Positions 23,546 to 24,949 of a stretch of DNA of 64,000 bases are shown here, one piece after another. How positions within the stretch are numbered: position 1 is the first letter of the stretch; each line of letters begins with the position of its first letter. Under the pieces are notes generated by a model. The model saw nothing but the letters and a program-made list of their open reading frames with translations. It had not been told where the DNA came from and did no database searches. The translations under genes were made by a program, and so were the position numbers. Source of the DNA: Escherichia coli (lineage in GTDB: Bacteria > Pseudomonadota > Gammaproteobacteria > Enterobacterales > Enterobacteriaceae); NCBI RefSeq assembly GCF_044647545.1, contig NZ_CP172818.1. One strand, 5' to 3'.

Positions 23546-23931
23546 TCAAGAAAATGCCAGGAACGGAGAAACACAAAGCAACAAACCAGTGACGATAATC
23601 AGGTACAGAGACATCCCTTTGTATTTGTGCAATGCCGGTACTTTGTAAACCAGCCACGCCGGGATCAGGCACCCTACCATGCCGAAAATCGGGCTACAGA
23701 TAGAGGTGAAGCTCAACACCGGTGCGTTCAGTACGATGGCGCTCCAGGCCAGCAAAATGGCGAAAATCATGATGCCGCGCTGAACGAGATTTTCGTTAAT
23801 CTTCTCGGCAGGCATCTTGCGACGCAGGATGTTCATTACGATCCCTTGCGTTGCTTCGCGAAAGCCTAAATAGACGCCAAAAAACGCGGTCATTACTGCA
23901 AAGATATTGAGAATGACGCTGACCCTTTCAC
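23546..23931 (-). pseudogene. cyuP: 3' fragment of the cysteine transporter gene cyuP (yhaO); 5' part replaced by anomalous sequence
   Basis: Reading frame ends ...VSVILNIFAVMTAFFGVYLGFREATQG...LLLCVSPFLAFS; upstream of codon ~23931 the frame runs into G/P/W-rich low-complexity translation. Confidence 0.75.
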
Positions 23932-24645
23932 CCACGGGGTTGCCCTCCTTCCATCTCTCTCCTGTTCCTGCTCCCTCCCCCACCCCCCCCCAAAACCTCC
24001 CCCCACCAAAACCCAAACAAACCCCAACCCAAACAACCCCCCCCCCCCACCCACCCACACACACACCCCCACCCAGAAAAGAACGACCCAGACCAGCCAC
24101 GACAGCCCCGGCCGCCGCCGGCGCCCGGCGCGCGGGCCGCCGACACCCGCTCCGCGCCACACCATGAGTGATCAGACGACAGGGACGGCGGCGGCAGCGC
24201 CCAAAGCGTCAACCAGGCGCAGGCAAGCTGCACGCCGCGTGTGCCGAGGGATTTCACCGCGCAAAGCCACCGCCAGGCCGTCGTCACGGAGCCGCGGCAT
24301 AGGGCAGACAGGGAGTCCGCGCCACCGACGGCCGCGATGCCGCATGCCAAGTGCGTGACATCAGACGTGCAGCGCCACACGAAGCTCGTAGCCGTCTGTC
24401 GTGCTAGTGAGACATCAGCGCGCGTTAGCACCGCAGCCCCATGTCGCGCCTCCCCCCCGCCTCCGGCGCCCCCCTGTCCACCCGCCCCCCCGTCCCCCGG
24501 CACCGGGCCGCGCGCGGCCCCCGCGCGGCCCCCCACCCCCCCCCCCCGGGCGGGCGCGGCCCCCGACAGCCCGCCCGGCCCGGCCCCCCCGCGCCCGGCC
24601 CAGGGGGGGGGGGGGGGGGGGGGGGGGGGGCCCAGACCGGGGGCA
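23932..24645. other. Anomalous GC-rich low-complexity segment with long C and G homopolymers (artifact or foreign/synthetic insert; not E. coli-like)
   Basis: C runs at 23973-23981, 24037-24048 and 24536-24547; G run of ~28 nt at 24603-24630; abrupt composition change against both flanks. Confidence 0.8.
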
Positions 24646-24893
24646 TTACCGAAAGCGTCAAAGAAAATGCTTATCTTATCGATCCAAAAATTAATTACAA
24701 TACAGATTTAAACATAGAGGATTCTAGCTCAGAGGAATTCCTTTCAGATAATACACTAGAGAAAGACGAAAATTCTCCTGACAATTGCTTTGAGGTCGTA
24801 AAATATAACACATATGAAGCTTATAACTCAGAGAAGCAATATTTTACCAGAGAGGACTATACGTATGATTACGACCTTTTAAATGCAATATAG
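24646..24893 (+). pseudogene. AT-rich 3' gene fragment, possibly the end of yhaC
   Basis: In-frame translation ...ENAYLIDPKINYNTDLNIEDSSSEEFLSDNTLEKDENSPDNCFEVVKYNTYEAYNSEKQYFTREDYTYDYDLLNAI*; position just upstream of the rnpB terminators; identity to yhaC not verified. Confidence 0.3.
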
Positions 24894-24949
24894 ACTTAAT
24901 AATTTCTTACAAAGTCTATTATTAATACCGTAGATATTTATTCATCTTA

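Follow-up and report, generated by a model that had tools for sequence, protein, structure and literature searches.

Deletions and inversions next to an IS1 arise by intramolecular target-primed (replicative) transposition of the element, as reported in the classical gal/Tn9 work and by Turlan and Chandler in 1995. The locus described here lies between cyuP and rnpB in 64,000 nucleotides of Escherichia coli DNA (the window, meaning that whole stretch) and resembles the adjacent deletions in that the missing DNA starts exactly at an IS1 terminus, the far end is variable, the closest genomes keep IS1 and they no longer have the target duplication. An inversion has arisen from the same IS1 copy as well, and the precursor, with its 9-bp duplication, is known. 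The locus differs from them in that it belongs to a natural chromosomal series across isolates of the lineage ST648 rather than to a selected laboratory event, and in that IS1 is not readable in the window itself. In the long-term evolution experiment, IS150-associated rbs deletions are said to be a case of IS-mediated loss of a catabolic operon in E. coli. There as here, a pre-existing IS is situated beside a dispensable catabolic operon, and deletions of varied length share one fixed, IS-bound end; however, the IS family and the operon differ.

IS1 is 768 bp in length and produces 8-9-bp target duplications (PMC12428005). Its adjacent deletions and inversions are reviewed in PMC9330008, where IS1 is named as an example of an element from whose exact terminus such rearrangements begin. 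A further comparison is with reference-biased assemblies. These lose insertions that the reference does not have, at the very nucleotide where the reference has its junction; they show reference alleles in places for which the sample has no sequence; and their errors cluster at structural differences. The window shows all three, but its T-biased dropout and long G/C runs match no assignable tool or chemistry, and small indels are rendered correctly in it, as is a deletion of 67 nt against K-12. Two layers together, an IS1-made deletion in ST648 and a K-12-guided reconstruction artefact in the window, form the reading that we consider quite likely.

Gene content and lineage of the window

In MG1655 the gene order at the locus is cyuP-tdcGFEDCBA-tdcR-yhaB-yhaC-rnpB. 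Relative to FDAARGOS_497, an intact close relative, 12,282 bp (L005 3719-16000) are absent between window positions 23936 and 24651. The missing block carries the 5′ two-thirds of cyuP, tdcGFEDCBA, tdcR, yhaB and most of yhaC. Its sole remnant within the window is a degraded tdcE-like piece inside an anomalous segment. The sequence-only reading had described a loss of about 12 kb of tdc, yhaB and yhaC between cyuP and rnpB, a cyuP remnant of about 130 codons and an AT-rich coding tail of about 250 bp before the rnpB terminators. All of these agree with the comparison, the tail being 243 bp of yhaC; in MG1655 the missing block corresponds to about 3,257,078-3,269,359.

The features of the locus are collected in Table 1. 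The cyuP fragment is the same as in the relatives through position 23924; a gap of 1 nt follows at 23925, and from 23937 the sequence is divergent or unreadable. In the relatives it extends 8 nt more and ends at the IS1 IRR; in the four closest genomes (H1-H4, below) it is annotated as a partial amino acid permease. Where the window has CATTACC, next to yhaC, the intact locus reads AGATTAT.

Table 1. Features of the cyuP-rnpB region in the window, with the IS1 of strain MINF_9A for comparison (L numbers are comparison sequences)
Feature	Position	Strand	Remarks
cyuA (cysteine desulfidase), intact	22208-23518	-	ORF of 436 aa; WP4-S18-ESBL-09 stretch containing cyuA 100% identical
cyuP 3′ fragment, C-terminal ~130 codons	23546-23936	-	exact match to L001 2847-3225
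Anomalous (corrupted) segment, 707 nt	23937-24643	none	stands at site of 768-bp IS1 in closest genomes
tdcE core of corrupted segment	24081-24450	-	about codons 490-660 region; MG1655 ~3,260,436-3,260,959; native orientation
IS1 left inverted repeat, last 7 nt (CATTACC), abutting yhaC	24644-24650	none	same as L001 4007-4013
yhaC 3′ fragment, last 243 bp (80 codons + stop)	24651-24893	+	same as L001 4014-4256 and L005 16001-16243
rnpB-distal terminator hairpin, two copies	24950-24984, 24990-25024	-	direct reading, three sequences compared
rnpB (RNase P RNA), intact	25033-25409	-	Rfam RF00010, 318.6 bits, full model
IS1 in cyuP of MINF_9A	L013 4151-4918		joins cyuP′ to tRNA-Ile/mug/rpoD

The window shares 96.0-98.4% identity with MG1655 and 99.95-100% identity with the ST648 genomes WP4-S18-ESBL-09 (WP4) and FDAARGOS_497 over about 61.5 kb. 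The K-12 yraHIJK cluster is missing from it. ECONIH1 and MS14385, members of the group of relatives of the window, have been typed as ST648 (PMC8454413). On nucleotide identity, the background is that of the clinical E. coli lineage ST648 and not a K-12 derivative. The sequence-only reading had taken the rest of the window to be K-12-like and the background to be K-12 rather than a different lineage; neither view stands at the nucleotide level, given the identities above and the missing yraHIJK. The agaW′/agaA′ truncation that it offered as proof of K-12 ancestry fails as such, as it is common to no close relative.

IS1 insertion, deletions and inversion in ST648 genomes

Among 5426 complete E. 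coli genomes searched by megablast with window positions 22200-26700, four from ST648, namely AP022098 (the WP4 record), CP103468, CM169490 and LR130555 (H1-H4), match all of the query but the corrupted segment, with 99.8% identity. All four display both breakpoints as in the window, with a 768-bp IS1 between cyuP′ and ′yhaC, and the window is identical to them base by base up to 23924 and again from 24644. At the right junction of the window, GAAAGCGTC of yhaC comes directly after the final 7 nt of the left inverted repeat of IS1. In H1-H4 no duplication flanks the IS1; in H1, CGCTGCGCC borders one end and GAAAGCGTC the other. The IS1 transposase gene is co-directional with cyuP and cyuA, and cyuA is situated downstream of it. 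The IS1 is complete in H1-H4 and readable in the window only for its terminal 7 nt (24644-24650), and the identical flanks in these relatives suggest that the strain itself carries the element. The deletion is carried by isolates of clinical and wastewater origin, from Japan and Australia, and by other human isolates; the subclade with it occurs elsewhere as well.

The tdcG-tdcA region is found in one piece in 5375 of the 5426 genomes, and 28 records show only pflB-level similarity in the same search. The deletion is thus a derived loss of a near-universal operon, as the sequence-only reading had it. It is not private to the strain, since four complete ST648 genomes share both breakpoints; the lineage has the same gene content here, which the reading had itself named as evidence against its account. 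The synteny break is genuine. It is a trait of the lineage, neither specific to the strain nor engineered.

A query consisting of the IS1 end, the predicted 9-bp duplication and the continuation of cyuP, as expected of a precursor, matches ECONIH1 at 100% over 309 nt. ECONIH1 carries a simple IS1 insertion in cyuP, with the IS1 identical at 768 of 768 positions, CGCTGCGCC on both sides and the tdc operon intact. In E17 the left junction is unchanged and the IRL end adjoins the start of yhaB, which gives a shorter deletion. MINF_9A (LR890334), a blood isolate, also shows the left junction unchanged, with the IRL end at tRNA-Ile/mug/rpoD; the rest of cyuP together with the duplication is found about 47 kb away on the opposite strand (record 2,630,983-2,631,291), that is, an inversion. 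The left junction is identical in ECONIH1, E17, MINF_9A and H1-H4, and the junction that varies is in every case the one at the IRL. Breakpoints, precursor, nested deletion and inversion can all be read in these genomes, one IS1 copy having given a 10,787-bp deletion (E17), a 12,282-bp deletion (H1-H4) and an inversion of about 47 kb (MINF_9A). The deletion starts exactly at the IS1 terminus, with one junction at the original insertion site, and the 9-bp duplication present in the ECONIH1 precursor is lost after deletion in H1. The fixed end, the variable distal ends, the lost duplication and the occurrence of both deletion and inversion products point to intramolecular target-primed transposition, of which this is the textbook outcome.

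The proposed origin would begin with insertion of IS1 in cyuP of an ST648 subclade, 399 nt from the 3′ end of the gene, with formation of the 9-bp duplication. The IRL of that IS1 would then attack a target in yhaC, 12.3 kb along the same molecule, and intramolecular target-primed transposition would remove the intervening DNA in one step while IS1 stays behind, leaving cyuP′-IS1-′yhaC. The mechanism is one already known: this is an ordinary IS1 deletion, with its precursor and sibling products present in public genomes.

IS1 is also found at this locus elsewhere. E138 (L003), of another lineage with 97-98% identity, displays an independent tdc deletion bounded by oppositely oriented IS1. In strain 361 (L011) and EC24 (L012), IS1A and IS1B are inserted at two further cyuP sites with tdc intact, and 14 genomes of other lineages carry IS1A in yhaC, within about 0.2 kb of the yhaC breakpoint. 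Loss of tdc is rare, recurrent and usually IS-associated. That cyuP-tdc-yhaC is an IS1 hot spot and that loss of cyuP and tdc is positively selected in extraintestinal E. coli is a doubtful extension of this. A search of the literature for tdc loss with IS1 or in ST648 yielded nothing relevant. As a separate observation, FDAARGOS_497 carries an IS1 in agaB (L005 32783-33550) that is 93% identical to the cyuP copy; it is missing in WP4 and in the window, where the empty site is found at 39152-39160.

An origin by homologous recombination between two direct IS1 copies, one in cyuP and one in yhaC, would give the same end product as one-step intramolecular transposition, and both the repeated IS1 hits in cyuP and the 14 genomes with IS1A near the yhaC breakpoint lend it something. 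However, the same IS1 end gave a second deletion in E17 and an inversion in MINF_9A, which is the pattern of transposition (PMC9330008). Moreover, the intermediate predicted for recombination, with the 5′ part of yhaC, the duplication and IS1 in one piece at lineage identity, is found in 0 of the 5426 genomes, which makes recombination between two copies less likely, and we regard this origin as unlikely. That the deletion was engineered in a laboratory strain derived from K-12 deserves almost no credence. The agaW′/agaA′ junction and the missing fimbrial island between exuT and exuR do look K-12-like, but the window is 96-98% identical to MG1655 against 100% to ST648, and the breakpoints are inside genes and are common to clinical, wastewater and human isolates. 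The check on engineering that the sequence-only reading called for also gave no sign of it: FRT and loxP sites (up to 6 substitutions) and the pKD priming sites P1 and P2 (up to 3) are found nowhere in the window.

The corrupted segment and other K-12-shaped differences

Positions 23925-24643 (719 nt) consist of 337 C, 204 G, 120 A and 58 T, with GC reaching 96%. The segment passes from C/T-rich to C/A-rich to G+C-rich sequence, with C12 runs and one G28 run, and every C or G homopolymer of at least 8 in the 64-kb window falls in it. No match in the E. coli genomes covers more than 31% of the segment. Its core is similar to tdcE, with E = 6e-21 in a distant BLAST search across E. coli genomes and E = 5e-25 locally. 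A deletion-tolerant alignment of window 24081-24450 with 524 nt of tdcE, extending to L005 7077, gives a score of 79.5 against 30 ± 3.7 for shuffled sequences. The core shows 359 matches and 5 mismatches to the K-12 tdcE allele, as opposed to 349 matches and 16 mismatches to the allele of the ST648 lineage.

About 30% of the tdcE bases are dropped from the core, with almost no substitutions relative to the K-12 allele. In its best 214 nt, scored against the lineage allele, 42% of T, 75% of A and 91-92% of G and C are retained. Over window 24263-24441, the deletions compared with tdcE amount to 21 T, 8 A, 4 G and 3 C, and a single base is inserted. Base-specific deletion of about 30% with almost no substitutions versus K-12 is no mutational spectrum. 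The core is also foreign to the strain's own chromosome, because it carries K-12-type alleles and the closest relatives have no tdcE.

In the same kind of alignment, the outer parts of the segment (23937-24080 and 24442-24643) show nothing above shuffled sequences against the 34-kb intact locus and IS1, on both strands. A garbled IS1 was tried and rejected as the source of the segment: a loose Smith-Waterman comparison scores 29 against 14.9 ± 2.2 for shuffled sequences, and the same stretch is tdcE with E-values of about 1e-21 to 1e-25. The weak IS1 similarity is probably spurious. Foreign high-GC DNA was likewise rejected, a distant search of plasmids and E. coli genomes having given tdcE and pflB only. 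The sequence-only reading had considered a replacement of the tdc region by the anomalous segment, but there is no inserted DNA; corrupted sequence is found where IS1 belongs. The 0.7-kb junction filler is a sequence-reconstruction artefact bearing K-12 reference sequence.

All differences of the window from WP4, over about 61.5 kb, are found at 13436-13505, 23925-24643, 24950, 35884-35893, 41797-41818 and 46393-46443. Each of these private differences sits at a structural difference between K-12 and ST648. In addition, K-12 alleles or structure appear at sites where the sample has none, namely the tdcE core, 13492, 13503-13505 and the aga junction. Between exuT and exuR (13436/13437), a 5,342-bp CS1-type fimbrial operon that is found in WP4 and ECONIH1 is cleanly missing, and the nearby 13492 (A) and 13503-13505 (extra CTG) have the K-12 state and not the ST648 state. 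An empty exuT/exuR site between these flanks is seen in no complete genome, 92.3% being the highest identity of any full-length match; in that search the zero count in the band of at least 99% identity is at odds with local half-matches at 100%, and the band was set aside.

At 35884-35893 a 2,296-bp deletion, agaW′-agaE-agaF-agaA′, has its junction at exactly the nucleotide seen in K-12, and the alleles to its left and right are those of ST648. The aga genes are present in WP4 and FDAARGOS_497. The junction is found in 370 genomes, of which the best full-length matches are K-12-type with 97.9-98.5% identity. A K-12 recombination tract is ruled out as the source of the truncation, the flanks being 100% ST648 right to the junction. 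Most likely the truncation is a product of the same K-12-guided reconstruction.

At the yra site (41797-41818), K-12 has yraHIJK and ST648 a spacer of about 100 nt; about 20 nt are left in the window, which, relative to WP4, lacks 93 nt here, has CA in place of TGTAAT and carries two additional C's. At 46393-46443, seven small substitutions or indels relative to WP4 are clustered within 50 nt, inside a segment of about 120 nt that is non-homologous between ST648 and K-12, and the surrounding 22 kb are otherwise identical. The rnpB-distal terminator is present in the window as two tandem copies separated by TAAAG and in WP4 as one copy, and K-12 has one diverged copy and three 113-nt repeats; 7 nt (CACTATG) are missing relative to WP4 at 24950. 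The 67-nt deletion relative to K-12 mentioned above (window ~6543-6551) is rendered perfectly, so the process was no naive copying of a reference.

Two other accounts of the segment can be set against these observations. A misassembly, in which the tdc region would be intact in the strain and 12.3 kb would have collapsed into 0.7 kb of junk, might explain why a tdcE-derived piece is found there in native orientation, and the window does carry several further reconstruction defects. However, with 12 kb in which they could lie, both edges of the segment fall within 7-20 nt of the IS1 junctions seen in H1-H4; its right edge bears the IS1 terminal CATTACC and no yhaC sequence; and the K-12 alleles of the tdcE remnant make it foreign to the chromosome of this strain. 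Such a collapse is improbable, more so than recombination between two IS1 copies. It is very improbable that the 707 nt are real DNA, an eroded and horizontally acquired K-12-type tdcE remnant with G/C homopolymer flanks. The segment does stand in the sequence and its core has a real gene as homologue, but the loss of about 30% of bases, with T kept at 42% and G/C at 91% and almost no substitutions versus K-12, speaks against it. So do the G28 and C12 runs and the 96% GC, which have no counterpart in the 5426 E. coli genomes, and a similar C-biased garbling at two more structurally variable sites of the window.

The segment carries K-12 alleles, and the private differences are located together with K-12/ST648 structural differences. 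The window would then represent an ST648 genome for which K-12 served as the template of reconstruction or supplied patches of sequence. DNA lacking in K-12 would have been dropped or garbled, and 0.7 kb of degenerate sequence, its readable core being K-12-type tdcE, would fill the IS1 junction. K-12-guided reconstruction of an ST648 isolate looks like the simplest reading. Gene-content calls from the window are not to be trusted without the reads, and this warning is the more useful practical result.

Predicted consequences for the ST648 subclade

Judged by what the genes are known to do, the ST648 subclade would be without TdcABCDEFG and their anaerobic breakdown of threonine and serine, and without TdcR, YhaB, YhaC and the cysteine importer CyuP. 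The cyuA gene is intact but would be cut off from the regulated promoter upstream of cyuP. Thus the subclade is predicted to have no Tdc route for anaerobic threonine and serine catabolism and no import by CyuP. The biological weight of this is small, as it is a further natural case of IS1 removing a dispensable catabolic operon. It is nevertheless a tidy one, since public ST648 genomes preserve, for one IS1 copy, the insertion as well as two nested deletions and an inversion that came from it.
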